Source: a virus. Taken from it: 64,000 nucleotides of DNA. How positions within the stretch are numbered: the first letter of the stretch is position 1; each line of letters begins with the position of its first letter. The position numbers and the translations under genes were made by a program. The notes beneath the pieces are model-generated. The model ran no database searches. It was not told where the DNA came from and was given only the letters and a program-made list of their open reading frames with translations. Where the stretch lies: IMG/VR virus record IMGVR_UViG_3300042882_000890, positions 42,605-106,604 of that record; one strand, written 5' to 3'. Shown here one piece after another: positions 46,534-64,000 of this stretch.

Positions 46534-49383
46534 TTACATTGTTTGTTTATACAAAGCCTTTTTTCTCATTTCTGAAATCTGGTCTCCTATGTATTTATTA
46601 ATTAAAACTGCTGTTATCTTATTAAAATTAGAAGTATTATAATCTACAGCTAAGGGTTCTTTTTGAGCCACTTTCTTACCATCTTTTACAATATATGGTA
46701 TAAAACCTCCTCCACCTCTAGGTTTTTCAAACTCCACTGAGTAATTAGAATTTAAAACGTCATTATAAAACAGTTTTGCATCTTCTGCCGGTAAATACCT
46801 AGAGGCTTCATTTATAAATTCTTCTCTAGTTTTAAATTCTGAAAAATTAGAGCTTTGGTAAAAACTTGCTTCCTCTTGAGAAAGATTGTTATTTTCTAAA
46901 AACTTTTTTGTAAACTCATATCTAGAATCCAAATCATTAAATGGCTTGTAGCTAAAAGTTGTTTTCATTGGTGTGGGATTTCTAGAAGAAAAATCCCAAT
47001 TTGTTTCTTGTCCTAAGCTTTTTATTAAAGGTGCTGGTAGATTGCTAACAGGTATCTGTTTTTCAGTAAGTACTTGCTCTTTTGTTTGACCGCCTTTTTC
47101 TTTAGGTATAAGTACTAACTCTGTGTAAGAAACTGTTGCTACTCCATCTTTTATCCCTTTAATGGTAATAAAGTTGTTATCTTTATCCGGAGAGCCGCCT
47201 GCTGCAACAATAGCTGCTTCTATTTGACCTATATAAGCTTTATCTACTTTACTTTCTTTATTTAAAACTATAGAAGTTTCGTAAGGAGCGTTAGCTAGAT
47301 TAGGTTTTAGTATTTTATCAAATCTATCTTTTACAGAATCTTTAGATGCTGTCACTCTATCCCATACACCTTCTGATTTACCTAGTTTTATATCATCAGC
47401 TTGTACTTGTCTAAGGTCTGAATCAGTCGCTAACATTTTGTCTATTGCAAAACCACCTTGTCTATTACCTTTTAATATTTGTTCCCAATTATCTTTTATA
47501 CCTTTCTTAACTCCTGCCTCACCCTCTCTTTGGGCTTTATCTCTCCAATCAAACAAAGTTGTACCTATAACTCTGCCTGCTGTACCAATTGTCAGTCCAA
47601 ACGCCCCAGACAAAGTATTTCCAACTCCGTCCCAAAAACCTTCTTCTACAGGCTTGTATTTAATTAAGTCTTTTTCGGATATTTTATTTTTTTGTCTGAA
47701 GTTTCCGATAAAAAAGTCCATTCTTTCTTTGTCTTCATCTTCATCAAGTACATATTCTCTTATGTTTTTGGCTATCTCATATTGTGCTAATATTTTATCT
47801 CTAGCTGGAACCTGTGAAGCATCTTTATATTTTTTTAATAACTCCGCAGTTTTTGGTGCAGTTATAGATAAACCTTCTACGTTTAGGTCTTTATTTTTAC
47901 CACCAAAAAGACCGGTAAATATCTCGTTTACATCTTTACCATAGTACTCTTCTGCTTGTTTAGATAAATGGTAAGATTGCTTATTATACTGCTCTACTTT
48001 TTTGTAATTGTCAATAACATCTGATGGGTAAGCTTGTGCATTGACATCAAAACCGGTTTTAGATGCTTCTCTTAGACCCACATAAAAATTTTCAATATCT
48101 TTTGCAGATGTGCCTTTTCCTTCTTTTGCTAGTTGTTGTTTTATGGTGCCTTGTAATGTATTCCAAGCTTGTTGTCTACCATCTTTATACCTTTTTAGAA
48201 CTGAACCTTTTTTCTCTTCTCCCTCTTGGTATGCTTTAGCCTCTTCTGGAGTTAAGTCTCTTTTAAAAGCGGTGCCTGCTGGTAAACCTGGTGTACCTAA
48301 ACCTCCTGCACCTGAAGTACCAGTTCCATCTTTTTTATTAGCTGCATCTAAAAACATATCATTAAAATCGATATCTGTAATTGCTGCGTAGCTATAAGTC
48401 TTCTTGTAGGATTCGGTTAGGTTGTTTACATAGTTGTTAAATAAAAAACTATCTCTATTATAACCTTGACCATTAGCTTGAGCTTCTGTAAACTCTTTTT
48501 TCTTAGTAATAGTGGCTTTTTTCTGATTTAGTATTTGAAGTCTTTCTGCATTATCTGGGTTGGTATTTTTTATTTGGTAGTCTATTTCAGTCATCTGCAT
48601 GTTCATATTATCAAGTACAGGTTTAACTACTTCTTTATAATTACTTAATAAAGCTTCATCAGAAACCCCCCTATACTTGTAATGTGAATCTATCATTAAC
48701 TGCTGTTTAAGATTAGAATCTGTTAGTATTCTGTTTTCTACAAAGTTTGCTATTTGTTCTTCAGATAGAGTTTTTCCTTTTACTGTTTTATAAATATAGC
48801 CCCCTTCAACACTAGAGTCTACTACCTTTTCAAAACCCATTTCTTTAGCCCATTTATCTAATGGTTCGTTTAAGTTTTTTGGGACATCGTAATAAGGTTT
48901 ATATTGTAAATTTCCTAAATCATCGGTCTCACCATTCATGTAAGCAGCATACCCTGATTTATCCATAGCATACGCATAGTTTGCATCGTTATACAACTCA
49001 GGTTTTTCTTTTTTAATCCTTGCGGCTTCTTGTTGAAAGCTTTGTATTTTTTGAGAGTTACCTATTTGCGTTTTTACATTATCATCAATAGCAGTACTTA
49101 TGTAATTAGATATTTGTCTAGTTACATTATTATTGGTCATATCAACTTTAGAATTAGCATCAACCATTGACAGTAATCCGTTTAGCCTATCCCCAAGATA
49201 CTTTTTATCTTGGTCTCTAACTAAAGGTACGCTTGTAATTTTTTGTATAAGGTCATCAACCTTGGCTACATTTACATCAAACCTTTGTTGTAAGGCTGTT
49301 TGTACTTGCCCCGTAAGTTGAGCTATATCCATTGTGGATATCGTAGGACTGTATGTTAATGGGGCTGTATATGCGTTTGCCAT
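46534..49383 (-). CDS. virion cargo protein (949 aa)
   Basis: Helical N-terminus, no Cys seen, located in the cargo cluster. Confidence 0.6.
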   Translation of the reverse strand: MANAYTAPLTYSPTISTMDIAQLTGQVQTALQQRFDVNVAKVDDLIQKITSVPLVRDQDKKYLGDRLNGLLSMVDANSKVDMTNNNVTRQISNYISTAIDDNVKTQIGNSQKIQSFQQEAARIKKEKPELYNDANYAYAMDKSGYAAYMNGETDDLGNLQYKPYYDVPKNLNEPLDKWAKEMGFEKVVDSSVEGGYIYKTVKGKTLSEEQIANFVENRILTDSNLKQQLMIDSHYKYRGVSDEALLSNYKEVVKPVLDNMNMQMTEIDYQIKNTNPDNAERLQILNQKKATITKKKEFTEAQANGQGYNRDSFLFNNYVNNLTESYKKTYSYAAITDIDFNDMFLDAANKKDGTGTSGAGGLGTPGLPAGTAFKRDLTPEEAKAYQEGEEKKGSVLKRYKDGRQQAWNTLQGTIKQQLAKEGKGTSAKDIENFYVGLREASKTGFDVNAQAYPSDVIDNYKKVEQYNKQSYHLSKQAEEYYGKDVNEIFTGLFGGKNKDLNVEGLSITAPKTAELLKKYKDASQVPARDKILAQYEIAKNIREYVLDEDEDKERMDFFIGNFRQKNKISEKDLIKYKPVEEGFWDGVGNTLSGAFGLTIGTAGRVIGTTLFDWRDKAQREGEAGVKKGIKDNWEQILKGNRQGGFAIDKMLATDSDLRQVQADDIKLGKSEGVWDRVTASKDSVKDRFDKILKPNLANAPYETSIVLNKESKVDKAYIGQIEAAIVAAGGSPDKDNNFITIKGIKDGVATVSYTELVLIPKEKGGQTKEQVLTEKQIPVSNLPAPLIKSLGQETNWDFSSRNPTPMKTTFSYKPFNDLDSRYEFTKKFLENNNLSQEEASFYQSSNFSEFKTREEFINEASRYLPAEDAKLFYNDVLNSNYSVEFEKPRGGGGFIPYIVKDGKKVAQKEPLAVDYNTSNFNKITAVLINKYIGDQISEMRKKALYKQTM

Positions 49384-49442: not shown

Positions 49443-51374
49443 TTATTTTTTAAACCTACCTCCAAATTTTGCTGTGGCTGTCTTAGTTTTTTTACTGGTC
49501 TTGGTTTTTTTATCTTCCTTATTAAGGTTTTCTATATAGGGTACATTCCCAGTACCATAACCTATATCTCTATTTACTTCGTACCCCTCACCCGTAAACT
49601 GTACATCTGGATTTAAGGCATTATATCTATTCAAAGCTTCTATGTACTTGTAATTGTTAATCTGGTTTGATGCAAGCTTGTCATAGTATCCTTGAATCTC
49701 CTTGTCGTAATTGCCTAAAGCAGTTTGAGTTCTTTGTTCATAGCTTAAAGCATCACCTGCTGAAGCATTTTCTTCTGCATCTGAGACTTTTGCATTATAA
49801 GTATCAACAGCGTTTCTAGCGGCAGCATTTGCTCTGTTTACATCTGCTATTGCTTTATTAGACATCATATTTTCATTAGCTGTAAGTCCTATTTCAGCTG
49901 CTGCTCTTTGCTGTGGTGTTAGTTCTTGTAGTGACTGTCTAGAAGCTGCTGCTGAACGGTTCATTTCTGTTAGCTGTTGTTCTGGAGATATGTCGTTATA
50001 ACCAATTCTACTAAACCTTCTTTGTACTTTTAGGCTAGGTAGCAAGTTAGGCAACATAGGTGATTGGTCTGGTAATAGCAAAAGACCTCTTCTATTTTTT
50101 TTACCGGGGGCAGCTGCTACATTAGATTGTTCTGGAGTTTCTTCCTCTGGTAAAGTTTGGTTTGTAACATTTGGTGCTTTATATAATGGGGCAACTGGCA
50201 TAGGTGCTTTGTATTCTGGTTTTTTTGGAACACCAGCCGCTAAAGTAGGAAATCTCCAATCCCATTTATCGTCATTAAAGCCCTCTAATAAGAAATTGTT
50301 ATAGTCTTCCTTTTTTATCGCTCCATCTGGTTCTCCTGTTTGTCCTAATGGATAAGACTGTTTAAGCTTATCTTTTTCCTCTTTTGTGTAAGAAGCTGAA
50401 TCTTTATCTGGAGAGATACCAGTGTTTTCAAATACCCATGGGGCATTCTTTTTTAGCATATCTACGTGCTTTGCTGTAAGTGGTTGCCCAGAGTCTGTAA
50501 AGTATTTTATTACTTCTTCTGGTCTATTTTTAACCATCCATGCTTGTAACTTACCAGCTTCTTTTCCTAAATCTTTGGCGTTAGGGTTTACATCACCTTC
50601 ATACCCGGCTGCTTCTGCACTTTTAACAAAATCCTTAAATCTTTTTCTTCTATCTTCTTCGGTATATTCTGCTACTGCATCTTGATAGTGTGGTAAGCTT
50701 GATAAAAGTTCCTTAGCTCTTTTTGGGTCTATGCCATATCTAGAAGCTGTTTCTAAATAGCTACCGCCCATTTGCATCTTACTTCCTGATTGTTCTTTCT
50801 TAGACATCTCTTGTTCCTCAAAAAGCATCTCAAAAAACCCAGCCATCTCTTTTTCTAATGGTTGTTTTTGTTTGTTTTTAGAGTTCAAAGTGTTATTTAA
50901 AAATTGATTGTTTATAGCAAAAGTCGTTTTATCTTTTGATTTTTCTAAATCCATTTTTAAGATAAGATTCTCTATCTCTTTGTTTAGTTTAGGTAAGTCT
51001 GAAGCATTGTTAAACCTATCCAGAGCTTTTGCATAAGTGTCTGTAGCTCTAAACGGTAGTTTTAAGCTTTTAGTTAACTGCTTGGCTAAATCGGCACCAA
51101 TTTTTAAGTGGTCACTAAGTATTCTTGCACCCTCTTCTAGCTTGACTGGTGTACCACCTTTTTCGTGAGTATTCCCACCAAACTTTCTAATACCGTTTGA
51201 GTCAAAAACATACTCGTTTTTTTCCACTTCAGCGTTAGCTAAATACAATCTGTCTTTAGTCAAAGGAGCCTGGTAATTACCGGCAAGCTCCTTTGCTAAT
51301 TCTTTTTTTGTTCCCCCTTCTGAAAAGAAGATATTTTCAAATACTTCTCTAGGTATTTCTATTTTATTATTCAT
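49443..51374 (-). CDS. crAss-like cargo protein (643 aa)
   Basis: NAEVEKNE...G.THEKGG...ILSDHL domain, Ala/Asn-rich coiled coil and C-terminal AKFGGRFKK. Confidence 0.6.
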   Translation of the reverse strand: MNNKIEIPREVFENIFFSEGGTKKELAKELAGNYQAPLTKDRLYLANAEVEKNEYVFDSNGIRKFGGNTHEKGGTPVKLEEGARILSDHLKIGADLAKQLTKSLKLPFRATDTYAKALDRFNNASDLPKLNKEIENLILKMDLEKSKDKTTFAINNQFLNNTLNSKNKQKQPLEKEMAGFFEMLFEEQEMSKKEQSGSKMQMGGSYLETASRYGIDPKRAKELLSSLPHYQDAVAEYTEEDRRKRFKDFVKSAEAAGYEGDVNPNAKDLGKEAGKLQAWMVKNRPEEVIKYFTDSGQPLTAKHVDMLKKNAPWVFENTGISPDKDSASYTKEEKDKLKQSYPLGQTGEPDGAIKKEDYNNFLLEGFNDDKWDWRFPTLAAGVPKKPEYKAPMPVAPLYKAPNVTNQTLPEEETPEQSNVAAAPGKKNRRGLLLLPDQSPMLPNLLPSLKVQRRFSRIGYNDISPEQQLTEMNRSAAASRQSLQELTPQQRAAAEIGLTANENMMSNKAIADVNRANAAARNAVDTYNAKVSDAEENASAGDALSYEQRTQTALGNYDKEIQGYYDKLASNQINNYKYIEALNRYNALNPDVQFTGEGYEVNRDIGYGTGNVPYIENLNKEDKKTKTSKKTKTATAKFGGRFKK

Positions 51375-54300
51375 AGCTTACTATATATGAGTCTGTTTTT
51401 GGATTATATGTGTAGTTTTTAATAGTCTTACCTACTAAAGCTCTCATGTATTTGCCTCCTTTTGACATTTGTGGAGTACCTTCTTCTTCCTCTTCTTCAC
51501 CACCTTGCATTTCTTGAAGTATCTCTTGTATCATTTGCATAGCTTCTTCTTCAGGCATTCCCATTTGAACTAGCTGTTGTAATATTTGCTGAGGGTCTGC
51601 TCCTTGTTTTAAAGCTTGCTCTACTTGGTCTTCGATTTGTTCTGACATTGCAGATTCGTTTTCCATACCTTCGTTTTCTTCTTCCATATCATCTTCCATC
51701 ATTTCTCCACCTTCTTGCCAAGTGCCAAACTTTTTGTGCCAATATAAAGGGCTAAATGGGTCGTTTGCTTTAGCTGAATCTTTTCCTCCCATTCTGTTCC
51801 AGAAATTCTTTTTCCTGTCCTCTGAACCGTGTTGAGAAAAATCTTTCATTTTGCTATCTCCACCGTGAACTACTTTGTATTGGTCTCCTTTTTTGGCAAG
51901 AACCATCCATTTTTTACCTGGTCTTGTAGACTGTCTTTTTACTCCTACTTTTGTAAAACCATCATTTTTATATCTTTCAGGTATACCACCGCCATCTCTC
52001 ATTTGAGGAGTGTCTTGTGGTGCTTGCATTTGTTGCATTACCGCTTGAACCAGTTGTATTGCTTGGTCTTCTGGAATACCGGCTTCTACCAACATTTGTA
52101 GTACCTCTTCTGGCTGTGCTCCTTGTTGTAACATTTGTGCTACCTGTTGCATCATTTCTTGAGCTGGGTCTGCTTCAGGCTCCATACCTCCTTCTTGGTA
52201 CATATTAGACATAATTTTAGCCTGTACCTCTTTAGGTAGAGCTTTAAATCCTGGGTTATTTATACCACCTTCAGCGTACATATAGCCACCCATTTCTTTT
52301 TTATTGGCTTTTATTTTTCTTTCTTGTTCTAACATTTCTTTAGTTGGTTCTTTTCCGGAACCTGCATTATCTCTAATGTTATCCCAAAGACCTCTTCTTG
52401 AATACGAACCATCTTTACGCTTAATCATTTCTCCACCTCTTCTCATTTGTGGTGTTCCTTCCTCCATTTGTTGCCCTTGTTGTTGAACCTGCTCCATAAT
52501 AGCTTGAACCAGTTGTATTGCTTGGTCTTCAGTCATTCCAGATTCCATTAACATAGCCATAGCTTCTTGAGGTTGCATACCTTGTTGCATAGCTTGTGCT
52601 ACTTGTTGGGCTATTTGTTGTTCTCCACCATCTTGGTAGTATCCTCCGTCATAAAACATTGGTTCTACCCCTATGTAGTCTAAGCCTCTGTTTAAAGTAC
52701 CCCTGAAACCTGTAGAAGAAGGTTTTGTTTTTTTATACTCTTCTCTCCAGTTTGTTGGTAAGTATTTATCTGAACCTTCCAAAGATAACTCACGTTTAGT
52801 AGACATACCCTCTCCCGGCTTTCCGTAGCTAATAATGTTCAAAAACTCTTGTGGGGACATCTTATATTGTTTAGCTAAAGAGTTCACTTCAGATTTTGTT
52901 AATCCAGTGTTTCCTCCTGAATGTCTTACCATATCATTATCCTTAAAGCTTTTTTCATCATAAGTGTCGTAATCCCCACCATCTTGGTATTTTATAAATG
53001 GTGTGCTAGAAGGTATTTTTCCCCATACGTCTTCCAACTCTTTTTGTCTTTTTATCTTATTTTTATATTGTGCTAAATGGTATGCGTTTGCTTCTTCTGC
53101 TGTAGCATTCGCTCTTAGCCTAGGCATTCTTCTTCCGCTGTCATCAAGTGGTGGTAGAGTTATTGATGACGAGAAGTTTCTTTCTAGGAAGTTTAATGGT
53201 TTTCCGTCTAGTCCTACCATTACTCCTTTTGCATTTCTTAAATCACCCTCACTATCATTATACCACCCTTTATAAGGGTCTACATAGTTATTTTTTTTAG
53301 GTCTTGTAACTACAACTTCTTTTAGTTGACCCCCGTTATATGTCTTCTCACCCTTCGGTGATGATTTTCTTAGGTATTCTTTTTTAAATCTTGGGTCATT
53401 AAGCTCTGATAAAAGCTTCATATTATCCTTAGCAGTACCACTAGTATAACCTAGTCTTTTAGCTTCAGACCAAGGCATTCCGGTTTTAGCCACCCAAGTA
53501 TCTCTAGCTGAATTTTTGTCATAGCTTGGAGTTTCCTCTTCTTTTGTTGAAGAAGTAGCTTCAACTGCTGATTCAATAGCAGGGCTTGTTGCTAATTCAC
53601 GCTGAGTAAAATTTTGTTGCTTGCCCATCAAACTAGGCTTATTTATCATGTAATTAGGCTCTTCCTCGTATTCATACCCATATCCTTCTTCATCCTCCTC
53701 ATCTTCTCCACCATCTTTATAGTACATCATACCTCCTCTTTTTAATTGAGGTGTTGAGCCTTGTATTTCTTGCATTACAGCTTCAACCATTTGAACTGCT
53801 TGTTCTTCTGGTATTCCCATTTGAACTAGTTGTTGAATAACTTGTTGTGGGTCGGCTCCTTGTTGTAACATCTGTGCTACTTCTCCCATTATTTGCTGCT
53901 CTTGCCCTTGTTGCTCCATACCTTCTTCCATTCCTGGTTGCATTCCTCCTTCTTGGTAGTAACCTCCAAATCTACCTAGTGGTTTTTCTCTGCCTTCTCC
54001 TGTCATACCCTCTCTTTGTTTTTCGTAAGATTGTTGAGTCATATAGTTCTTTCTTCTTTCTTGACCCATACCTCCTAAAAAGTTTCTGGCTAAGCCTGTA
54101 GCTAACTTTAATCCGGAGCCTACTATACCTAGGGTATCCCCACTTTCTATAGACGAGCCTAAAGTACTTGCTGCTGTTGGTATATCAAAACCAGAGTAAG
54201 GATTAAAAAATTGGAATGGCTGTTCTCCTTTTACGTCTAGTGGAGCTACATCTGATTTTTCTTTTTCCTTAGCTCCTTCTTCTCCAAATATATTTTTGTC

Positions 54301-56163
54301 GAATGACTTGGATTCAACTAGAGGATTACCTTCTGTTTTTTGTATTGTATCAGGTACCCCGTTGTTATCTATATCCCAACTATTAACGTTTCCTGGAGCA
54401 AAAGTATTTTGTCCACTAGCTTGGTTATTTATGATTGGTGTTGGATTAGGCTGTGGTTTAGGTAATGGTTGACCATACTCATCTAACTCAGCGGTTCCTG
54501 CTAATTGGTATTTTGGTAATTGATAACCACCGTTACCGTGTACATTCTCATACATACTATAGGCAATAGCTACAGCTTGTTTTTGAGGATAGCCTTCTCT
54601 TACTAACGTAGATATTTTATCACTTATCCAGTCACTTTTTTGTCCACCTTTTCTAAACTCTGGTGTATCCCCTAATAAAAATTGATTAAAAGTCTTTTTG
54701 CCTCTTATGTTTCTATTAAAGGCTGAATTTGTTGTATTGTCCATATTATTTTGTTTACTGTTTGAAGGTCTTGTTTGTCTACTGTTTGAAGGTCTTTTAT
54801 TCCCCATGTCTGATAAAATACCGTTTTTTTGGGCTTCTATTAGAAGGTCGTGTTTACTTTCTTCTGTGATTGGAAGCGTTCCTACTACACTTCCCACAAA
54901 ATTATTATATAAATCAGATGCGTGTTCTTTAAAACTATTAGGTGAGTTCACTTCATGTGCTAATCCTGCAAGATTGGTCATTGCTATATTAGCAGATAAA
55001 CCCCCCGGTAAAGCATTAGCCCAACTAGGTAATATAGAAGATGTAGCAGCTGCACTTGAAGAGTGTCTTATAGCATCTAATCCTCCATTGTGTATACCAG
55101 TTCTTATACCTTTCTGCTTGGCTCTTTCCATAGCTCTTTTTGTTACTGGGTCTACGTACTTGCTTAAAAGCTGTCTTTCTAAGCTGGGGTTTATTTTACT
55201 TTTACCCCCTGTTTGATAACGAGGAATTAACTTTCTTGTATCTCCTGATTCTTCAGATAATTGTCTTAATGATTCATTGTTTTCAGGATACCATTTATAA
55301 TTAGTTTGACTCTTTCCATTGTTTACAATATCTTCTACATCATAGTATTCAGGTATTCTTACAACAGGTCTTAATCCTGACATGTCAGCACTTAATTCTA
55401 TATCACTTTGTATTAAACCTTCTGGTTTTAAATTGTTTTGTATTGATTTTATAGGTTGTCTAGAAACTTGGGGTGGTTCAATATAAACAATATCATATTT
55501 ACTTGGTTTTTCGTTTTTTCTATAAAACATGTTTTTTAAATCTCCTTCATATCTACCTTTAGCTATTTCAGGTGTTAAAGGTGTCCAGCTTGTATTAGCA
55601 GGTTTTACTATTACTTGTTGTTGTTGTGGTTTTTTAAATACAGGTATATACGTATCTTTTTTTCTATCAGAAAAAATTATACTAGTAGGTTTTATGTTTG
55701 ATTTTTTTACATCTTCATCATAATATTTTTTTAAAGCTTCTTTGTATTCTTTAGAATTTTTATTAGAATTTACTGTTTTTTTAAATTTTTTATCTGATGC
55801 CCATGGTTCTTTAAATCTTGATGATGTATGATTATATAACTTTAAACTATCCTGATAAGCTGTATATCTAGGGTCATTTTCTGATTCTACATATATTTTT
55901 TTACCACCTGCTTGGAAAAATGGTATTTCCTCTACATAAGATGCCCCTTTAAATTTATATTCCCCCCCAGGTTGCATAACCAGACCATTTCCCATAGGAT
56001 TACCGTTTTGGTCTAAAGGAGTGGCATATACTGGGTAAGGCGTATTAGCCATGGTTATATCCTCACTTGGTATATAGTTTACAGGATTTTTCTCTGTATC
56101 ATATCCAGGAGTATACCCTGTTTTGTTGATAAGGTTACGCTTCTTTTTTTGGCTCCTTTTCAT
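51367..56163 (-). CDS. modular virion protein / candidate polyprotein with repeated xxxGG junctions (1598 aa)
   Basis: About 18 [FYMW/K]-x-x-GG motifs separate small domains, plus four Q/M-rich helical repeats. Confidence 0.75.
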   Translation of the reverse strand: MKRSQKKKRNLINKTGYTPGYDTEKNPVNYIPSEDITMANTPYPVYATPLDQNGNPMGNGLVMQPGGEYKFKGASYVEEIPFFQAGGKKIYVESENDPRYTAYQDSLKLYNHTSSRFKEPWASDKKFKKTVNSNKNSKEYKEALKKYYDEDVKKSNIKPTSIIFSDRKKDTYIPVFKKPQQQQVIVKPANTSWTPLTPEIAKGRYEGDLKNMFYRKNEKPSKYDIVYIEPPQVSRQPIKSIQNNLKPEGLIQSDIELSADMSGLRPVVRIPEYYDVEDIVNNGKSQTNYKWYPENNESLRQLSEESGDTRKLIPRYQTGGKSKINPSLERQLLSKYVDPVTKRAMERAKQKGIRTGIHNGGLDAIRHSSSAAATSSILPSWANALPGGLSANIAMTNLAGLAHEVNSPNSFKEHASDLYNNFVGSVVGTLPITEESKHDLLIEAQKNGILSDMGNKRPSNSRQTRPSNSKQNNMDNTTNSAFNRNIRGKKTFNQFLLGDTPEFRKGGQKSDWISDKISTLVREGYPQKQAVAIAYSMYENVHGNGGYQLPKYQLAGTAELDEYGQPLPKPQPNPTPIINNQASGQNTFAPGNVNSWDIDNNGVPDTIQKTEGNPLVESKSFDKNIFGEEGAKEKEKSDVAPLDVKGEQPFQFFNPYSGFDIPTAASTLGSSIESGDTLGIVGSGLKLATGLARNFLGGMGQERRKNYMTQQSYEKQREGMTGEGREKPLGRFGGYYQEGGMQPGMEEGMEQQGQEQQIMGEVAQMLQQGADPQQVIQQLVQMGIPEEQAVQMVEAVMQEIQGSTPQLKRGGMMYYKDGGEDEEDEEGYGYEYEEEPNYMINKPSLMGKQQNFTQRELATSPAIESAVEATSSTKEEETPSYDKNSARDTWVAKTGMPWSEAKRLGYTSGTAKDNMKLLSELNDPRFKKEYLRKSSPKGEKTYNGGQLKEVVVTRPKKNNYVDPYKGWYNDSEGDLRNAKGVMVGLDGKPLNFLERNFSSSITLPPLDDSGRRMPRLRANATAEEANAYHLAQYKNKIKRQKELEDVWGKIPSSTPFIKYQDGGDYDTYDEKSFKDNDMVRHSGGNTGLTKSEVNSLAKQYKMSPQEFLNIISYGKPGEGMSTKRELSLEGSDKYLPTNWREEYKKTKPSSTGFRGTLNRGLDYIGVEPMFYDGGYYQDGGEQQIAQQVAQAMQQGMQPQEAMAMLMESGMTEDQAIQLVQAIMEQVQQQGQQMEEGTPQMRRGGEMIKRKDGSYSRRGLWDNIRDNAGSGKEPTKEMLEQERKIKANKKEMGGYMYAEGGINNPGFKALPKEVQAKIMSNMYQEGGMEPEADPAQEMMQQVAQMLQQGAQPEEVLQMLVEAGIPEDQAIQLVQAVMQQMQAPQDTPQMRDGGGIPERYKNDGFTKVGVKRQSTRPGKKWMVLAKKGDQYKVVHGGDSKMKDFSQHGSEDRKKNFWNRMGGKDSAKANDPFSPLYWHKKFGTWQEGGEMMEDDMEEENEGMENESAMSEQIEDQVEQALKQGADPQQILQQLVQMGMPEEEAMQMIQEILQEMQGGEEEEEEGTPQMSKGGKYMRALVGKTIKNYTYNPKTDSYIVSYE
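51505..53900 (-). repeat. four dispersed ~45-aa Gln/Met-rich repeats (V.QMLQQGA.P..V..QLV..G.PE.QA.Q.V)
   Basis: Copies near 53760-53900, 52470-52620, 52025-52160 and 51505-51640. 29-nt identity between 52043-52071 and 52502-52530. Confidence 0.85.
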
Positions 56164-56173
56164 TATGTTTTAA

Positions 56174-58879
56174 TTAAAGTTTTTTTGCTTTTTTTAGTTC
56201 AGATTTCCACTTAGCAACATTTTTATTTAGTAGTAAATTGTCTGAAGTTGTTTTGTAGGATTTTTTACCGTCTGATACATCAAAAATATTAGAGAAGTTA
56301 AGTACCTTATTAGTATAATCTACATCATAAGTTTTTGCCCAATCTTCTACTTTTTTACCATTTACTACACGACCCATACTGCTGTTGTAGTTTGTTACAG
56401 CTCTGTATAGTGCATCTTTTTTACTAAATCCTTTATTTAAGAATTTTTTATAATCCCTAGAAACCTTATACATTGTAGTTAAAGATACTTTGTCCTCATC
56501 ATTGAAATTATCTTTTGTGATTCCTATTTCTGTCAAATCATCGTTTCCAAAATTGGTTTCGTATTTCATTTGACCTGCACCTTTTGATACTTCATCTTTT
56601 TTGTATCCTACAGCTTTAAAGCCTGTGGCTACTGCTCTTTTTGTACCCGTAGTATATAGCTCATTTGTACCAAAATCTGACTCTTGACCTAAAATACCTA
56701 AAGAAGCTTTTGCTAAAGAGTTGTATTCGTCATCTCCTAAATTGAATACCTTTGATAAAGCTTTTTTATTTTTAGAATCATTCAAAGGTTTTATATAGTA
56801 GTTTTCTAGTTTCTCTTTTGCTGATTTAGAAGTAAAGCGGTTGTTATAATCTCCAGAAGAGAGGATTGCTGATTTTTTAGGGTCTATTCTTATAGCTAAG
56901 TCTTCTCTAATAATCTTCTTTTCTCCACTTTCTACAGCTTCGTATTTTGGTCTAAAGGCGTGTTTTACTGTAAAATTATGAATGCCGGTTGTATTATTTT
57001 TTACTAGTTCTCTATATTCTCTACCTTGCCAGTTATCTTTTGAGCCAGTGTGGTTATTATGTAGTATATAATAACTACCATCTGGGTTTACTTTATCTAC
57101 AATACCTACGTGAGTTGTACCTGTACCTGCTGCATCTGCCTCTCTTTGATAAGCACTACTACCTCCAGTATACATAGTAACTACGTCTCCGGGTTTTACA
57201 GTTTTTCTGTCTACTTCTTTACCTCCTTTAGTAGTTATGTTCTTACCAATATCCCAAGCATTACCATAAAGTCCTGTCTTAGTATTCCACTCTTGCCTAG
57301 ATACATTTGGTTGAATATTTCTAAATAACTCATTTTGAGCATACTCAGAGCATTGTCCTTCTGTACACTGTCCTAATAGTCCTTCTCCTTCTTTAAAACT
57401 ATGGTAGTTTGGGTTTGATAAGTTCTTATTGTACTCTTGGACTGCTTTTAAGGTTACTTTACCAATCTTACCATCAATACCTTGATTTTCAAACTTACCT
57501 TCTGGGTTTAAGTTATACCCTTGGTCTACTAAAAAGCTTTGTAGTTTTTTTCTTTCTGCGACTGTTTTGTAGTTAGACAGTCCTATACCTAAGTCAATGT
57601 CTTTATTCTCTATTGTATCTTCTAGTGTAGCTTTACTTGCTAATTCTTTTGAGTACTGGTCTAAATCGTTTAACGTAGTTTTTTCTTTATACTCTTTCTT
57701 TTTTGCTTGGGCTTCTATGTTTCTTTTTACTGGGGCTTCTAAGTTTGATAAGTTATCTCTTTTTGTAGTTTTATAGAGATTCTCTTTATTTTGGTTAATG
57801 ACTTCATCTACCGTTTTTTTCTTGTATTCAAACTTTGGTATTAATGGCTTCTTAGTTCCAGGTTTAGGTTTACCTTCGTCTTCTGTCTCAGTGTCTGCCT
57901 CTAACTCTACATCTGAATAGGTGTCTACAAAATCTCCTCCTTCTTCAAATCTTTTCAAGATTTTATTGAACTTTGTATAATCTATTCCACCTTGAACTCC
58001 ACCTTCTTCAAAATAGCTTGGTGCTTGTTGTGCTTGAATTTCTGGTAATTCCGGCATATACAATTGATATCCGGATTGTTGTGCGGCATAGTTTTGACCT
58101 TGTGCAAATTCTTGTTGTTGCTGTTGTGTTCTTTGGAAGTCCTCCATAAAGTTCTTCTCTTGCTGGGCTTGTGCTAACTCTTGTTTGGCAACATTTCCTT
58201 CGTTGTCTTCTTTAGACTCCTCTGTTTCGTAATAATCATTGGCTGACATATACTCCCCAGAGTTTTCGTTTAGTCTTATTGTGCTATCTACGTAGTAGTC
58301 ACCTAAAGGTTGTTCATCTTCTTGGTATTTTTGAGTTTCTTTTATAGGTTCCTCTGTATAATAGCCCTCTTCTGCATCTTTGAAATCATAAGGTTTTTTT
58401 AAAGTGTCTTTAAACACATTTTTTAAATGCTCTAGCTTTTTAGCTTTTTGATTCCTATAAACTCCTTTTCCTGATGTAGTTGGAAGTGATGCCCAAACTG
58501 GGGATGCTAAATGTGTGGCAGAGTTAAAATCTCCCTCTAAAAGTTTTTTTAGTGAACCACTTTTTCTTAATAGTTCTACCGCAGCTATATCTTGAGACTG
58601 CCTAGAAAAATCATTTAGTCCTAAATCTCTAGAAAGCCCTTCCCAAGTTGAATTTAAAAATTGATACGCTCCTTCTGCTGATGAGTAATCTTTAATAGAA
58701 GGTATCCAAACTTTTTTACCTGGTTTTTTGTCTAAATTATTAAAATATGTATACCCTACTCTTGTGTTATAACCTCTATCATTGTCTGTACCTTCTGCAT
58801 TACGTATAACACGTAGCATAGCTTGTACCTCCGGCTTTCTTAATAATTCTAAATTTTCTTTGTATCTACTTGTAGCCAT
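56174..58879 (-). CDS. virion-associated multi-domain peptidoglycan hydrolase (lambda-R-type lysozyme, PG-binding, CHAP-like, SLT-like)
   Basis: IRNAEGT..SSAEGAYQF..FS..SQD..WASLP; LQSFL..G..DGKIG..T; QCSEYA..GNAW..PGD..HVGIV; GQESDFG..KGAGQMK..YN. Confidence 0.85.
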   Translation of the reverse strand: MATSRYKENLELLRKPEVQAMLRVIRNAEGTDNDRGYNTRVGYTYFNNLDKKPGKKVWIPSIKDYSSAEGAYQFLNSTWEGLSRDLGLNDFSRQSQDIAAVELLRKSGSLKKLLEGDFNSATHLASPVWASLPTTSGKGVYRNQKAKKLEHLKNVFKDTLKKPYDFKDAEEGYYTEEPIKETQKYQEDEQPLGDYYVDSTIRLNENSGEYMSANDYYETEESKEDNEGNVAKQELAQAQQEKNFMEDFQRTQQQQQEFAQGQNYAAQQSGYQLYMPELPEIQAQQAPSYFEEGGVQGGIDYTKFNKILKRFEEGGDFVDTYSDVELEADTETEDEGKPKPGTKKPLIPKFEYKKKTVDEVINQNKENLYKTTKRDNLSNLEAPVKRNIEAQAKKKEYKEKTTLNDLDQYSKELASKATLEDTIENKDIDLGIGLSNYKTVAERKKLQSFLVDQGYNLNPEGKFENQGIDGKIGKVTLKAVQEYNKNLSNPNYHSFKEGEGLLGQCTEGQCSEYAQNELFRNIQPNVSRQEWNTKTGLYGNAWDIGKNITTKGGKEVDRKTVKPGDVVTMYTGGSSAYQREADAAGTGTTHVGIVDKVNPDGSYYILHNNHTGSKDNWQGREYRELVKNNTTGIHNFTVKHAFRPKYEAVESGEKKIIREDLAIRIDPKKSAILSSGDYNNRFTSKSAKEKLENYYIKPLNDSKNKKALSKVFNLGDDEYNSLAKASLGILGQESDFGTNELYTTGTKRAVATGFKAVGYKKDEVSKGAGQMKYETNFGNDDLTEIGITKDNFNDEDKVSLTTMYKVSRDYKKFLNKGFSKKDALYRAVTNYNSSMGRVVNGKKVEDWAKTYDVDYTNKVLNFSNIFDVSDGKKSYKTTSDNLLLNKNVAKWKSELKKAKKL

Positions 58880-58956: not shown

Positions 58957-61900
58957 TTATGTGTTCTGAGATTCGTTTAACACAAACTTTAATGTTAGAC
59001 TAAATCTACTGTCGGCATCATAAGTCAACCTGTTTAAGAACCAGTCTCCTTCCATTTTTTTAAGTGGGTTAATACCGTAGAATTTAATTACTGCTGGATT
59101 AGGTTGCTTGTCAATCTGGTTCTTATCTTGAAGTAAGAATGGTATGTTAGTCGTGTTGTACTTAATCCTATTAAAGATATAATCATAAGTAAACTGGAAG
59201 TTATCCTTATTGGTAATCAATATGTTTTGCGTATTATTTTGATTTGTTTTAGGATAGTTTTTTGTGTTAGCTAAGTTTGGCTTTTGTATATCTAGTATTA
59301 GTTGACCTGAGCATCCTACATTGTTGTAAATCAGAGATTTATTAAATGTTAAGTCAGGTGTTACAGAGAAATCGTAATCATTACTATACCTTTTTGCTTC
59401 CGTCCATAGCTTAATCCCTTTTAACCTTTTTGTCGTATACTCAGCTTTTATAGGATATTCAACAGTGAATGATTTCTTTTTACCATAAAATACTTGGTAT
59501 GATTTGTTTGTTAGTAAGTGAGACCATAAGCCTAATTCTGAACTGTCTACTGCGTTATTCCTACCTGTTTGGAAGTAAGTATTGTGACTGATGTAGTAGT
59601 TAGGGTAAAAGCTGTAAAAACTCATCCATGAACCTGTATTCAAAGAAAAAGCTATAGTCCAAGATACATCCTCAAAGTAGTTAGTGTTCGTCACGCTTAC
59701 TGGTGTTACTACAGTCTCTTGCTCTGGTGTGCCTCTGCCTGTAACTTCTACACATACATATCCTACGCCTTCCACAAATTCTACACAAGGTTTAGGTATA
59801 TAGTCTTTTTTAGTTATAAAGATTCTTCTGTATCTACTATCCCACCCCATTGTGATACCAACTCCATTATATGGATTGTCTATATCTGCATTTGGTATAG
59901 ATTTTAGTATCTTGAAAGGTAAGTGCTCTTTGAACCAGTTTCTCATTCCACTAGGTCTGTTTCCAATTGAAGTAGATATTTCTTGAATGCCGCCACTGTT
60001 TGGTGGTACCATTAATACTTGACCTCTTTTTGCATCTACCCAAAAATGACCTGCTTCACAAGAAATACTTGCAAAATTTTGAGTTCCACCATACCCTATC
60101 TTAGCATTAACAAAAGATGTGCTAGCTCTTTGGAAAAACATATTTCCTCCTAAAACTGTTGCAGTTATTGCTGAACCGGTATCTATTTTTGTGTCTATCT
60201 TATTATACAATACAGAAGTGTTGTCAAATCTAGTTAGTATAGCTCCACTTTCTACATCTATTATGTCTTTAAGTTTCCCGTAATTAGAGGGGAACTCAAA
60301 CGTGTCTAAAGGTCTATATATTAACCATGGGTCGTATATCGAGTTTTCTGTACTGTCTCTTAAACTAGCCATTATACCATTTGGCATATCTTGTACGCAA
60401 TCATCAAACTCTTTATTATAGGTAGGACTTAAAGTTCTACTTCTTATAAAAGTTGAGCTTTTTGAGTATACTGTGTTGTATTTAAAGATGTTTGGTTCTC
60501 TTATTGGTACCACACTTTCTTGTGTCCACTCTCCTAAATCTCCGCAAACAGGGTAAAAGCTTTCTCTTTTTTCTTTGCCGGAATATCTATAGTTGGTATT
60601 TATACGTGTTTCTGTTAAAAAGTTTGGTACACCATAGTAGTACAAATAAAACTTAGATGGTGGCACAAAGTAGTTACCAGAACTAGTCCTGTTATCAAAG
60701 CTAAAATCACTGCTTATATCTGGGAAAGCTTTACCACTACTGCTAAAATCTTTGTTTTGTTCGTAGCTAACATAGTACTTAGGGTTTCTACCTATATTGC
60801 TGTAGTAGAAATAGTTAAAAGGTGTTAAATCAGCTTGTTTCATAGCTGTAACTAAGAACAGTGGTATCTTTCTTTTAAAACTGTGTCTTGTTATAAATGT
60901 ATCGCCACCAAAAATAGGTAGTACTTCTACACAACTATCATTTATATTTGTTAGAGAGCCTACAAAAGATGTGGTAAGCCATTTTATAGAGTTTATTGTA
61001 TTGTACTGAGATGGTAAATAGTTTTTTAAAGCTACATAAGGGGATGCGATGTCTTTTGCAATTTCAGGGCTTCTGCCTATTGAGTTCAAACTAGACAAAA
61101 ACATTGTGGTTAAACTAGAATTATTTTTGTCATGTGTTTTGTAATAATCTGGGTAATTTACTAGAGACTTGCCTGTTGACAATATTACTGTCTTTTCTCT
61201 GTCTATATTATTAACCTTAAAAGTTTCTCTAGTAACTTCATTTGTTACATTATACCTTCCATCGCCTAGGTATTTTGCAATGTTTAAGGCTCTTAAATTA
61301 GAACCTCTCTTTGTTTCTGTATTCATATAGTTATAAAAACCCTCTGAATAATAGTAGTAGGCAAAATTTTGTGGGGCACCTAAATCTCTAAATATTTTTA
61401 GCCACTCATATCTATATCTTCCATACTTATAAACAATAGCGGTTGCGGTCTGTGCAACAAGTACAAGTGCGGCTCCTACTATACCTCCTGGGAAAACAGT
61501 ATTTGCGAAACCTATTACCCAGTTTGTGTTTGATATAGATTCTGCTACAGACATTGCTATTTCAGCTATAACTTCGAGTGTTGCTAAAGATGCGGCTAAA
61601 TTATAAGCAGAGCCAGATAGTATAACCCATCTTGGGTGTTGTCTTACTTCGTCAAAATAACCACTAGAGTTTCCAAACATATAGCCTTGAATAGACATCT
61701 CAGAAGGTAACGTAGGTTTCCCATAATCTGTTTCAGGAGAATGGAATGTATAATTTCTGTTTGAATTACCCCAAACTACTCCTTCGCTATCTATGGTTGT
61801 AATACTATCCAAGTTCAATACGTCTTTAGAGTAAGTATTGTATGGATAGTTGGAGTAGAAAACCTGTCTACCTCTTTCATTATACCTACGCATATCAAAA

Positions 61901-64000
61901 AGTAATCCTGAAGATATTACACTTCTGTCTAAAGATATATCCCCTCTGAATATCTCGTAGCTGACTATTTTTTTTCTATCTTCTGGAGATAAAAGATTGT
62001 TGTCAACAGCTATATCCAAAAAAGTGTTTATGACATTTTCATCTATTGTTATACCCATCGGATAAATAACAGATTCTGAAAATGGTAATTTTTGTTGATT
62101 ATATAAAAAAGGTGCTACTTTATTGTCTGGAAATTTAAAATGTCTTATGTTTCTACAAGTAAAATCAGCAACTTCTTTTGTTGTGTTTTGCCAAGGTTCG
62201 GATTTAAAAATATAATTGCCATCCTCTACACCGTCTGTAAAAACTTCTTTGAACTCTGTTATCGTTTCGTTAGTTAATTTGCTAGATACCCCTTCTATTC
62301 TTTCTTCGCTTATCAGAAGATTAGCTGAGTTATAAAGTTCATTATTGTCTGGGTATGTTTGTTCACTTTCCCAAAAAGCTGGTATTCCTGTTTTGTAAGG
62401 TATTGCTTTACAAGACTGGGCTACTGGTTCTTCAAAAGTACATATTGCTGTGTATAATATTTTTTTACTTAATTTTAAATTACTCCAAGATACAAAAATT
62501 CTACTGTATTCCATATCTCTTTTAGTTAGTGTGTAACAACCCTTTGTTGGGGAATTTACCCACACTGGTACTACATTACTGTTTACACAAGCACCTGACT
62601 CTAGCTCTTTTAGCTGTATTGTTAGTGGAGTATCTACAGCTATCAAATACTTACTATTTGCGAACCATCCTCCAGGTATAAGTGTAGAGGTGCCTTGTAA
62701 GTCTGTTATTAATAAATCTGTTGTGTTTTTTCTTTCAAATAAAAACGTGCCTTGACCAGCAGAGCTTGATAAATCCACGAATTTGGAAAATAAAGCTTGG
62801 GAGTCTGTACATCTTTTGAACAAGCTAAATCTAACAGTTGAGGCTATAGCTATTAAATCATCTCCTTGTGGGTCTATTTGCTTTGATAAATCTATAATAA
62901 ACCTTTCTTTAGTTTCTGTGTTACCTTTGAACCAAAGTGTGTTTTTACTTAATCTTGGATAAAATAATTGTCCTGAAAGATTCCCATTTAGATACGTTGT
63001 TTTATCACTGTACTGTAAGCTATCTGGGGTATTTGTTATCTCTCTAATTAAATTGTTTGCTTGGTCTGCTATATATAAAGTGTTCCAACCACCAAAGTCA
63101 GTATTTGGTACTAGAGCTATATCCACTGGTTCGTTAAATCTTGCTGACCAATCTACTCCATCAATTTCGACACCTGTTCCTACAAGACCTGCTGTGCCAC
63201 CAAGACCTGCTATGGTAGTAACTATTGTTTGTGTAGGATTGTTGTAAAATGATATTTTTCTAATTGCGTGGTTGTATGAATCTGCTACATAAAGGTCTCC
63301 GTTAGAGTCAATTTTTATTCCTATTGGGTTATTAAATCTTGCAACGGTAGAAACTCCGTTTGCATATCCTGGTGAAGGACTTGATGGATTACCTGCAACA
63401 AGAACCAGAGACCCTCCTGTTGCTGGTATTTTAAATATCCTATTGCTACCAGAAGATACAATATAGAGTGTTGAATCGTCTGGGCTAATAGCTATTCCAC
63501 CTAGGTCTCCTAAGCCAGTTGAGGTACCTGAGACAATAGATATGCCTAAAGTAGCCATATTTAATTCTCTTACATCATCAAGAGTTCCAGAAGTATTTGT
63601 AAAATAAATAAATGTGTCATCGGAGTTAATGGTTATACCGTATACATCTGCAAATATTGGGTCAGTTTTGAAAGTACTAACAACACGAGCTGGTGTAATT
63701 TTTCTGATTGCACTATTACCTGTATCAACTACGTAAAGATTGCCTAAAGAGTCAATAGTTATTGCGGATGGGCTATTGAATGTTGCGGCAGTTCCGGTAG
63801 CATTACCAAAGCCAGAAGCACCTGAAGTTGAACCAGCAAAAGTGGTTACTTCACCAGATGGCGTGATTTTTCTAATTGAGTGTGCGACAAAATCAGTTGC
63901 ATAAATATTACCAGATGAGTCTGATATCATACCAAGTAGCGTAGTAAATTCAGCATCAGTACCTTCACCGTCTTCAGTACCGTCCTCTCCAGAACCAGCT
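58957..64000 (-). CDS. tail muzzle / stabilisation protein (crAss-like, P22 gp10-related) with NHL beta-propeller repeats; 5' partial
   Basis: FGGDTFI, DPWLIYRP, GYGGTQ, WVDAKRG, GMRNWF, WTIAFS...WMSFYSFYP and NHL repeats (ARFNNPIGI..D..G.LYVADSYNHAIRKI). The frame stays open to the window edge. Confidence 0.8.
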   Translation of the reverse strand, partial: AGSGEDGTEDGEGTDAEFTTLLGMISDSSGNIYATDFVAHSIRKITPSGEVTTFAGSTSGASGFGNATGTAATFNSPSAITIDSLGNLYVVDTGNSAIRKITPARVVSTFKTDPIFADVYGITINSDDTFIYFTNTSGTLDDVRELNMATLGISIVSGTSTGLGDLGGIAISPDDSTLYIVSSGSNRIFKIPATGGSLVLVAGNPSSPSPGYANGVSTVARFNNPIGIKIDSNGDLYVADSYNHAIRKISFYNNPTQTIVTTIAGLGGTAGLVGTGVEIDGVDWSARFNEPVDIALVPNTDFGGWNTLYIADQANNLIREITNTPDSLQYSDKTTYLNGNLSGQLFYPRLSKNTLWFKGNTETKERFIIDLSKQIDPQGDDLIAIASTVRFSLFKRCTDSQALFSKFVDLSSSAGQGTFLFERKNTTDLLITDLQGTSTLIPGGWFANSKYLIAVDTPLTIQLKELESGACVNSNVVPVWVNSPTKGCYTLTKRDMEYSRIFVSWSNLKLSKKILYTAICTFEEPVAQSCKAIPYKTGIPAFWESEQTYPDNNELYNSANLLISEERIEGVSSKLTNETITEFKEVFTDGVEDGNYIFKSEPWQNTTKEVADFTCRNIRHFKFPDNKVAPFLYNQQKLPFSESVIYPMGITIDENVINTFLDIAVDNNLLSPEDRKKIVSYEIFRGDISLDRSVISSGLLFDMRRYNERGRQVFYSNYPYNTYSKDVLNLDSITTIDSEGVVWGNSNRNYTFHSPETDYGKPTLPSEMSIQGYMFGNSSGYFDEVRQHPRWVILSGSAYNLAASLATLEVIAEIAMSVAESISNTNWVIGFANTVFPGGIVGAALVLVAQTATAIVYKYGRYRYEWLKIFRDLGAPQNFAYYYYSEGFYNYMNTETKRGSNLRALNIAKYLGDGRYNVTNEVTRETFKVNNIDREKTVILSTGKSLVNYPDYYKTHDKNNSSLTTMFLSSLNSIGRSPEIAKDIASPYVALKNYLPSQYNTINSIKWLTTSFVGSLTNINDSCVEVLPIFGGDTFITRHSFKRKIPLFLVTAMKQADLTPFNYFYYSNIGRNPKYYVSYEQNKDFSSSGKAFPDISSDFSFDNRTSSGNYFVPPSKFYLYYYGVPNFLTETRINTNYRYSGKEKRESFYPVCGDLGEWTQESVVPIREPNIFKYNTVYSKSSTFIRSRTLSPTYNKEFDDCVQDMPNGIMASLRDSTENSIYDPWLIYRPLDTFEFPSNYGKLKDIIDVESGAILTRFDNTSVLYNKIDTKIDTGSAITATVLGGNMFFQRASTSFVNAKIGYGGTQNFASISCEAGHFWVDAKRGQVLMVPPNSGGIQEISTSIGNRPSGMRNWFKEHLPFKILKSIPNADIDNPYNGVGITMGWDSRYRRIFITKKDYIPKPCVEFVEGVGYVCVEVTGRGTPEQETVVTPVSVTNTNYFEDVSWTIAFSLNTGSWMSFYSFYPNYYISHNTYFQTGRNNAVDSSELGLWSHLLTNKSYQVFYGKKKSFTVEYPIKAEYTTKRLKGIKLWTEAKRYSNDYDFSVTPDLTFNKSLIYNNVGCSGQLILDIQKPNLANTKNYPKTNQNNTQNILITNKDNFQFTYDYIFNRIKYNTTNIPFLLQDKNQIDKQPNPAVIKFYGINPLKKMEGDWFLNRLTYDADSRFSLTLKFVLNESQNT

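Follow-up and report, generated by a model that had tools for sequence, protein, structure and literature searches.

A standard Gly-Gly joint between small modules of probable cargo proteins in a crAss-related phage, and its candidate role as a protease cut site

We analyzed a 64,000-nucleotide stretch of viral DNA (the window; positions 42,605 to 106,604 of IMG/VR record IMGVR_UViG_3300042882_000890), which is the last 64 kb of one linear 106.6-kb phage record rated ~70% complete. In its minus-strand virion block, three adjacent genes encode proteins of 1598, 901 and 643 amino acids (aa) (P0001, P0003 and P0002, respectively) in which a short motif, a hydrophobic residue followed by any two residues and Gly-Gly, recurs. 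The motif is limited to this three-gene set. Structure models indicate that the proteins are strings of small, autonomously folding modules with the motif in the disordered linkers, and comparison of homologous sequences suggests that it belongs between modules, as a standard joint at which whole modules are gained, lost and moved. We tentatively favor a model in which the joints are putative protease cut sites, and weigh it below against two models in which the chain stays uncut.

Results

The motif is confined to three adjacent genes

The motif was scored as [FYWM]xxGG and its expected number was taken from residue shuffles (300 for P0001). P0001 holds 15 such motifs against 1.83 expected, a number that 0 of the 300 shuffles reached, while P0003 holds three against 0.50 (p=0.003) and P0002 two against 0.23 (p=0.01). 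The remaining 121 open reading frames (ORFs) of the 106.6-kb record together contain nine motifs in 29,314 aa, which is near background and corresponds to a density of 0.31 per 1000 aa versus 9.4 in P0001. All motifs listed by a first-pass annotation of this DNA were recovered in the genes that it named, and the enrichment bears out its proposal that the motif is common to three adjacent virion-block genes. That annotation also raised the question whether the motif is confined to virion proteins; it is not equally frequent elsewhere in the record, and it is not general to virion or cargo proteins either. The same confinement is seen in ~25 diverse related loci retrieved with a profile of the 643-aa family, in which the motif is enriched in the 643-aa-family ORF and the ORF just upstream and is essentially absent from the downstream ~950-aa ORF (the slot of cargo protein C2 in phage crAss001), the giant ORFs and the muzzle-slot ORF.

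The joint after each internal module consists of the final hydrophobic residue of that module, a pair of polar residues and Gly-Gly. Among 119 homologues of P0001, there is a strong residue bias ahead of Gly-Gly, with Tyr, Met, Phe or Trp at P5, mostly Gln but sometimes Lys, Ala, Glu or Arg at P4, Glu or Asp at P3, and often Pro or Gly at P7; Glu, Met or Tyr follows Gly-Gly. An extended (T/I)-P-x-hydrophobic-x-x-G-G pattern is retained in the disordered linkers, and modules unrelated to each other all finish in Phe, Tyr, Trp or Met at an equal distance from Gly-Gly. The Gly-Gly columns are invariant in both the 1598-aa and the 643-aa family, in which mean column identity is 32-62%. Pro is depleted 4-fold directly after the Gly-Gly of joints, but also 2.4-fold after non-motif Gly-Gly and, hence, this depletion is not decisive. 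Tandem joints spaced only 4-6 residues apart are common. Because the glycine codons vary from joint to joint, we conclude that the constraint acts on the protein rather than the DNA, and we rejected the idea that the joints are maintained as DNA repeats.

Joints lie in predicted disordered linkers between small folds

The modules and joints of P0001 are as follows.

51367..56163, minus strand: 1598-aa GG-jointed modular protein P0001; no cysteine
Canonical [FYWM]xxGG joints of P0001: GG at residues 66, 86, 319, 506, 697, 739, 818, 944, 1062, 1173, 1179, 1243, 1299, 1325, 1391, 1485, 1554 and 1569
Variant joints of P0001: GG at residues 545, 733, 810 and 1292
55903..56163, minus strand: N-terminal module, residues 1-87, with the end FFQAGG; kept in ~96 of the 119 homologues as well as in Cellulophaga phage phi17:2 (gp041)
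54643..55203, minus strand: helical module, residues 321-507, weakly DUF6973-like or SAA-like, between YQTGG and FRKGG
54526..54642, minus strand: small KQAVAIAYS module, residues 508-546, phrog_2423
53962..54525, minus strand: Pro/Asn-rich linker and hydrophobic Gly-rich segment (~residues 650-700)
53707..53961, minus strand: Q/M-rich module 1, residues 735-819, with a joint on either side
52432..52641, minus strand: Q/M-rich three-helix module 2, residues 1175-1244 (AlphaFold, confidence score pLDDT 86-93)
52264..52431, minus strand: GLWDNIR module, residues 1245-1300; shared by P0001 with homologues P0005-P0007 but missing from P0012, P0013 and P0035
52186..52263, minus strand: NPGFKALP mini-module, residues 1301-1326; only in P0001 and P0005 of seven aligned proteins
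51988..52185, minus strand: Q/M-rich three-helix module 3, residues 1327-1392 (AlphaFold)
51706..51987, minus strand: DUF5754-like module, residues 1393-1486, IPERYK...FGTW then QEGG; a mobile cassette
51454..51705, minus strand: Q/M-rich three-helix module 4, residues 1487-1570 (AlphaFold)
51370..51453, minus strand: C-terminal beta-hairpin, residues 1571-1598, ...IKNYTYNPKTDSYIVSYE; only in relatives with the split gene

Residues 1160-1598 were modeled with AlphaFold from 61 sequences. Seven segments of this model have pLDDT <50, each of which contains a Gly-Gly dipeptide, and six of them hold at least one full joint; the seventh (1555-1565) holds G1555 of MQGG and stops four residues short of MSKGG. 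Between the joints, the model has confident small folds (module pLDDT 85-96), namely three-helix Q/M bundles (86-96), a hairpin-plus-helix unit for the DUF5754-like module and the terminal hairpin. The model of P0002 behaves in the same way, with low confidence at residues 10-21, 193-204 and 621-643. Consistently, 66% of the ends of BLAST alignments to the 119 homologues fall within eight residues of a joint, versus 18% expected, an excess partly inflated by the Q/M repeats. These data agree with the earlier proposals that the motif sits at module boundaries and that P0001 is a string of independent mini-modules. Foldseek and VIA-align gave no specific fold match for either AlphaFold model; the best row for the multi-module model, an adenovirus precursor protein with an E of 0.27, was treated as noise. 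Sequence searches of the 1598-, 901- and 643-aa proteins against Pfam, PHROGs and the PDB returned weak or partial domain matches only.

The four Q/M-rich repeats noted previously are indeed present and are 42-58% identical to one another at the protein level. Q/M modules (three of them modeled as three-helix bundles, and UBA-like by Pfam matches in homologues) alternate with other modules with a joint on both sides and, where the module between two of them is missing, their joints become direct neighbors (GG-YYQxGG). Such modules have the look of spacers or handles. The gene caller of the public record begins the ORF of P0001 at Met57 (1542 aa).

Whole modules are exchanged at the joints

Alignment of P0001 with six close homologues (seven proteins) revealed insertions and deletions of whole modules with both ends at joints. 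The DUF5754-like unit is found in two of the seven proteins, the GLWDNIR unit in four and the NPGFKALP unit in two; one homologue is without the whole stretch between two YQDGG joints (1063-1174), and one further module is found at two different positions in two homologues. Similarly, homologue P0035 has a different module in place of the helical DUF6973-like module, and the KQAVAIAYS module is the first module (M-KQDWIS...) of homologue P0076. In varying order, homologues carry DUF5754, YkuD, CHAP, amidase, glucosaminidase, PG_binding, UBA-like and other domains.

The most informative module is the 94-residue DUF5754-like unit, for which a full-library search returned 387 cluster representatives, 255 of them at E<=1e-30. 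Among the matches listed (the best 150 of the 255), the unit is 73-96% identical and occurs at any position in proteins of 108-2662 residues. When the unit comes last, the protein ends at ...FGTW (12-13 cases), and when it comes first, the protein begins M-IPERYK. When it is internal, Gly-Gly directly precedes it in 159 cases and is separated from it by one residue in 19, and its Trp is followed by exactly two residues and Gly-Gly in 191 of 191 cases; downstream of Gly-Gly, the spacing varies from 0 to 4 residues. Because the unit is without the motif when it is first or last, the joint is an element that belongs between modules and not a packaging tag carried by each module. These sequence comparisons thus speak against the previously proposed capsid-binding tag on every module and, together with the seven-protein alignment, substantiate the claim of a cassette-like gain, loss and movement of modules in which the motif marks the breakpoints. 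We also observed that the DUF5754-like module is far more conserved than its carrier proteins, the cluster representatives being <50% identical to each other. The few papers that name DUF5754 or DUF5872 deal with giant viruses of algae and polinton-like viruses, and the module is thus common to phages and eukaryotic viruses.

Genome setting and the split-gene form

In transcription order, the minus-strand virion block comprises genes for proteins of 1657 aa (58957-63930), 901 aa (56174-58879), 1598 aa (51367-56163), 643 aa (49443-51374) and 949 aa (46534-49383), followed by three giant proteins (1965, 2584 and 1909 aa). A match to the virion protein family phrog_37948 was found for the 1657-aa protein, whose best cultured relatives are phages phi4:1 and phi17:2 of Cellulophaga together with a gut phage of the epsilon crAss-like group; the 949-aa protein matches phrog_32131, and the 2584-aa giant, which has LPD23 and ART-PolyVal domains, is a polyvalent protein of the classical type. 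In this crAss-related phage, the three jointed genes are flanked by the muzzle-slot gene on one side and the giant cargo genes on the other, and the order of the block parallels that of crAss001 (muzzle, cargo C1, cargo C2, giant polymerase-associated cargo). The products of the three genes are probably packed in the particle and injected. Four metagenomic relatives rated 100% complete are 130-160 kb long, three of them with direct terminal repeats, and phi17:2 has 145 kb; compared with these sizes, the 106.6-kb record probably misses part of the genome.

The two genes on either side of P0001 in the jointed set have the following features.

49443..51374, minus strand: 643-aa protein P0002; start 8 nucleotides before the P0001 stop
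56174..58879, minus strand: 901-aa protein P0003; lysozyme (residues 16-163, phrog_90), two joints, CHAP (residues 508-609, PF05257) and a C-terminal domain
57935..58015, minus strand: joints YFEEGG and RFEEGG of P0003, residues 289-315, with GG at 293 and 314

As the first-pass annotation stated, both FEEGG motifs of P0003 lie between lysozyme and CHAP, and P0002 carries MQMGG and a terminal AKFGG. P0002 consists of a 21-residue leader ending in FFSEGG, a beta-rich domain, the joint KMQMGG, a long helical hairpin and the tail AKFGG-RFKK, and it is the counterpart of the C-terminal two thirds of the fused one-gene form that is found in most relatives, including gp041 of phi17:2. Most relatives have this single fused gene of 900-1370 aa, and the split into two genes is the trait of a sub-lineage. 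Inspected family members begin with a short leader and then a joint, and most end in hydrophobic-GG plus a few basic residues. The profile of phrog_36695, a virion structural protein of phi4:1 and phi17:2, matches both P0002 (E 3e-53) and P0001 (E 5e-22), and tblastn to phi17:2 and phi4:1 gave 52% identity over 71 residues.

The P0001 and P0002 genes overlap by 8 nucleotides (hairpin 51367-51453, leader 51312-51374, minus strand). In every relative with the split form, a C-terminal beta-hairpin of the upstream protein (...IKNYTYNxxTxxYxVxYE) is paired with a conserved N-terminal peptide of the downstream protein (M..KIxIPKExFENIFFxxGG), and fused relatives are without both. Hairpin and peptide may re-associate as one split module and thereby hold the halves together non-covalently. 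A further conserved feature is the extreme C-terminus, which is hydrophobic-GG followed by 3-5 basic residues: AKFGG-RFKK here (49446-49475, minus strand), KWGG-KKR in phi17:2 (locus L001, 11254-13941) and RFGG-KI in others, and locus L002 (11988-14516) likewise carries such an end.

Discussion

Injected phage proteins decide the first minutes of infection, and the make-up and delivery of those of crAss-related phages are largely undescribed. On present evidence, our preferred though tentative explanation of the joints is that they are putative protease cut sites. A candidate protease would recognize the joint and cut after Gly-Gly, either inside the particle or after injection, such that a single precursor, whose conserved end modules would bring it into the particle, would yield a dozen or more separate mini-proteins, and new modules could be added by simple insertion between joints. 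Adenain, pS273R of African swine fever virus (ASFV), SUMO/ubiquitin proteases and the coronavirus papain-like protease (PLpro) act on short sites that end in Gly-Gly with upstream recognition and free downstream residues, and SUMO tails read YQEQTGG. Cutting is favored because recognition confined to the upstream side and free downstream residues match such Gly-Gly-specific proteases, and because the motif is restricted to three genes here and to the same slots in ~25 loci. In addition, the joints sit in segments with pLDDT <50, Gly-Gly is invariant and constrained at the protein level, insertions and deletions end at the joints, unrelated modules place their last hydrophobic residue at an equal distance from Gly-Gly, and the extended motif persists in disordered linkers; as in known Gly-Gly polyproteins, the sites thus lie in accessible linkers between units and are conserved upstream and free downstream. 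Cutting is also favored because the layout of a leader plus a joint and of a joint plus a basic tail, seen also in gp45 of crAss001, is poorly explained by a mere hinge. Finally, a continuous chain is evidently dispensable, because a sub-lineage splits the protein into two genes.

The fuller version of this model, a true polyprotein strategy, is one that we put forward with somewhat more reserve. It holds that a precursor carried by its end modules would be diced at ubiquitin-tail-like sites by a phage or host protease of an unrecognized type, releasing a dozen or more mini-proteins. Some of the modules (DUF5754, DUF5872-like) are shared with algal giant viruses, and the standard site would make the cargo freely extensible.

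Several observations weigh against cutting. No member of Peptidase_C48, C39, C5, S78 or ClpP was found in five complete relatives. The record that contains the window, rated ~70% complete, likewise gave no C48 or C39 match. The head module had been suggested as the place to look for a protease, and Pfam detected no protease family in eight ORFs from the minus-strand block that lies upstream, on the head side; a 170-aa ORF outside the window (genome 22985-23497) had no Pfam match at E<=0.01. A novel or a host protease may be compatible with these negative family searches. The peptidase-type domains in the neighboring gene vary, with CHAP here and two HExxH domains in gp042 of phi17:2, and therefore fit variable cell-wall enzymes better than a dedicated processing enzyme. 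Moreover, the crAss001 structure paper (PMC10172136) and the Crassvirales review name no protease, gp45 was modeled as one chain from tail barrel to portal, and its portal-bound domain was built unbroken through a non-canonical AFGG-W junction (PMC10172136).

We re-matched the matrix-assisted laser desorption/ionization (MALDI) peak lists of crAss001 virion gel bands 1-10, deposited with the 2018 crAss001 paper (PMC6235969 supplementary file 14), to the phage virion proteins. The bands assign to gp44; gp50 and gp47; gp49 and gp44; the portal gp20; gp26 and gp22; gp22 and gp25; gp25; and gp23. The portal protein has 12 matched peaks. For gp45 (predicted 91 kDa), which should have the same copy number as the portal (12), matches do not rise above decoy level in any band >=70 kDa. 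This result gives a weak hint of cutting, tempered by being negative evidence from mixed bands, with low-mass bands outside the re-matched lists. In bands 1-2, the muzzle protein gp44 migrates at more than 300 kDa, pointing to an oligomer that is resistant to sodium dodecyl sulfate or disulfide-linked.

A possible but more doubtful explanation is that the joint is a standard hinge in a chain that stays whole, with Gly-Gly freeing the beads for one-by-one packing or threading through portal and tail and the joint serving as a universal in-frame adaptor through which rare recombination events would still produce working proteins. A hinge needs no extra factor, in keeping with the failure of family searches to find a protease, and it accounts for joints that are disordered and occur only between modules, and for module breakpoints at joints. 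The joints share 8-11 nucleotides of similar sequence (TAC CAA GAW GGW GGW), a possible microhomology, and C1 of crAss001 was modeled as one extended chain through the portal that is ejected from N- to C-terminus with partial unfolding (PMC10172136). A passive linker, however, should accept Ser, Asn and changes in length, whereas Gly-Gly is invariant, and its distance from the hydrophobic residue is the same in 191 of 191 cases as well as in modules unrelated to one another. A hinge also leaves unexplained the conserved hydrophobic position, the conserved TPQM/TPxF stretch in the disordered linkers and the joints that come after a leader of 10-20 residues or before a basic tail of 3-5 residues.

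We consider it unlikely that the joints are uncut docking motifs that hold the chain in register by binding either a host factor or a repeated site in the particle (tail-barrel rings, portal, capsid wall or DNA). In favor of docking, the motif is short, strictly conserved and located in disordered segments, and it is confined to three proteins whose slot in crAss001 holds the cargo associated with tail and portal. Both resolved segments of gp45 (214-245 at the barrel rings and 425-552 at the portal) begin at or just after hydrophobic-GG, and FAEGG (260-264) and FAYGG (559-563) lie 14 and 6 residues past the ends of these segments. Against docking, a first or last module carries no motif, so that the motif is not needed by each module, tandem joints 4-6 residues apart are common, and the giant cargo proteins, which also need to be retained in the capsid, are without it.

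Lastly, the 9.4% Gly content of P0001 and the fact that eight joints flank the four paralogous Q/M modules might suggest a function-free by-product of composition and duplication, but this idea is very improbable and already contradicted by the shuffles (1.8 motifs versus 15 observed), by joints after unrelated modules and in two further genes, by their retention between Q/M repeats of such limited identity, by the pattern in hundreds of homologues, the relatives' loci, phi17:2 and crAss001 gp45, and by the spacing around the DUF5754-like unit.

A universal joint for stringing, exchanging and perhaps releasing modules would explain fast diversification of cargo, and with it as a simple sequence rule, hundreds of giant 'hypothetical' virion proteins can be divided into their units. 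If the joints are cut, they point to an undiscovered Gly-Gly-specific protease, and if not, to a new rule for the threading of proteins through the tail.

Comparison with known systems

The closest structurally characterized counterpart is cargo protein C1 of crAss001 (gp45; PMC10172136; PF25725), the gene of which follows the muzzle gene and precedes those of C2 and the giant polymerase-associated cargo. Its N-terminal leader is basic and closes with hydrophobic-x-x-GG at residue 21; it also has a hydrophobic segment rich in Gly, scattered hydrophobic-GG near the edges of its resolved segments, and a long C-terminal helical region with a basic tail after Gly-Gly (GG-rich basic repeats at the end). 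The slot, the basic leader and the hydrophobic segment are all present in the window genes; the segment of P0001, which is kept throughout the family and in gp041 of phi17:2, may resemble the predicted membrane segment of gp45. In contrast to the window protein, which is split over two genes and the first of which has grown to 1598 aa through ~15 added modules, gp45 has three canonical joints only and a single gene. The portal-binding domain profile PF25725 crAss_CARG1 (133 positions, cut-off 27 bits) had no match in the window's record at E<=10. hhalign of the P0002 family against gp45 gave a probability of 3% and an E of 0.013, with 66 columns aligned in the C-terminal helix; gp45 was not among the PDB sequences retrieved with a profile, and BLAST of the window proteins against gp45 gave no significant match. 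Foldseek and VIA-align on the 643-residue model found generic helical hairpins only and not gp45, and a homologue search from gp45 gave near-identical sequences only, with no bridge to the window family. Thus, the resemblance to C1 is one of gene position and architecture without detectable homology, and the missing match fits the statement that epsilon-group crassviruses have no detectable gp45 homologue (PMC10172136).

By contrast, gp041 of phi17:2 (gp40 of phi4:1) is a true homologue, with residues 235-321 matching P0001 and 357-581 matching P0002. It is annotated as a virion structural protein and has six canonical joints plus the terminal KWGG-KKR tail; it differs in being encoded compactly by one gene (895 aa) and in lacking the Q/M, DUF5754, GLWDNIR and DUF6973-like modules. 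In the slot of the 901-aa lysozyme and CHAP gene, phi17:2 has gp042 (L001 9035-11254, 'tail protein'), the N-terminus of which resembles a tail lysozyme and which also contains two HExxH (zincin-like) domains, with FLKEGG and YAQAGG as the separating joints.

The joints resemble the sites of Gly-Gly-X processing by clan CE proteases in adenovirus and ASFV, in that a Gly-Gly site with an upstream hydrophobic residue lies between units of a virion precursor. In the window proteins, however, the hydrophobic residue is at P5 and not P4, and neither a C5 or C48 match in the five complete relatives nor a C48 match in the window's record was found. Processing at other sequences is known from T4 and phiKZ-like phages, in which the prohead protease cuts internal or ejected head proteins at a short consensus, and from the lactococcal tail lysin Tal2009, which cleaves itself in a Gly-rich stretch beside a cell-wall hydrolase domain. 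These systems differ from the window in their consensus sequences and in that their proteases are known, while no protease of the S78 or ClpP type was found in the five complete relatives.

Multi-domain injected phage proteins, possibly processed, are already known as polyvalent proteins (Iyer 2017, PMC5512222), which likewise combine many unrelated domains in one virion-delivered polypeptide with extensive mosaicism, include lysozyme and peptidase domains, and have been proposed to be processed into separate domains. With ~15 modules, P0001 falls in the range of 2-15 unrelated domains in mosaic architectures that defines them; its modules, however, are mostly tiny (25-110 aa) and non-enzymatic, Pfam detected none of the LPD or effector domains of PMC5512222 in P0001 or P0002, the classical polyvalent 2584-aa neighbor is without joints, and no conserved joint is described in that work. 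A search of the literature on crAss cargo cleavage, the joint and DUF5754 returned nothing relevant, and we found no description of a standard hydrophobic-x-x-Gly-Gly joint with cassette exchange in the literature searched. The present analysis adds the test of the termini of a mobile module, the count of its fixed spacing, the confinement of the joint to three gene slots across relatives, the negative tests for known proteases and for C1 homology, and the split-gene variant.

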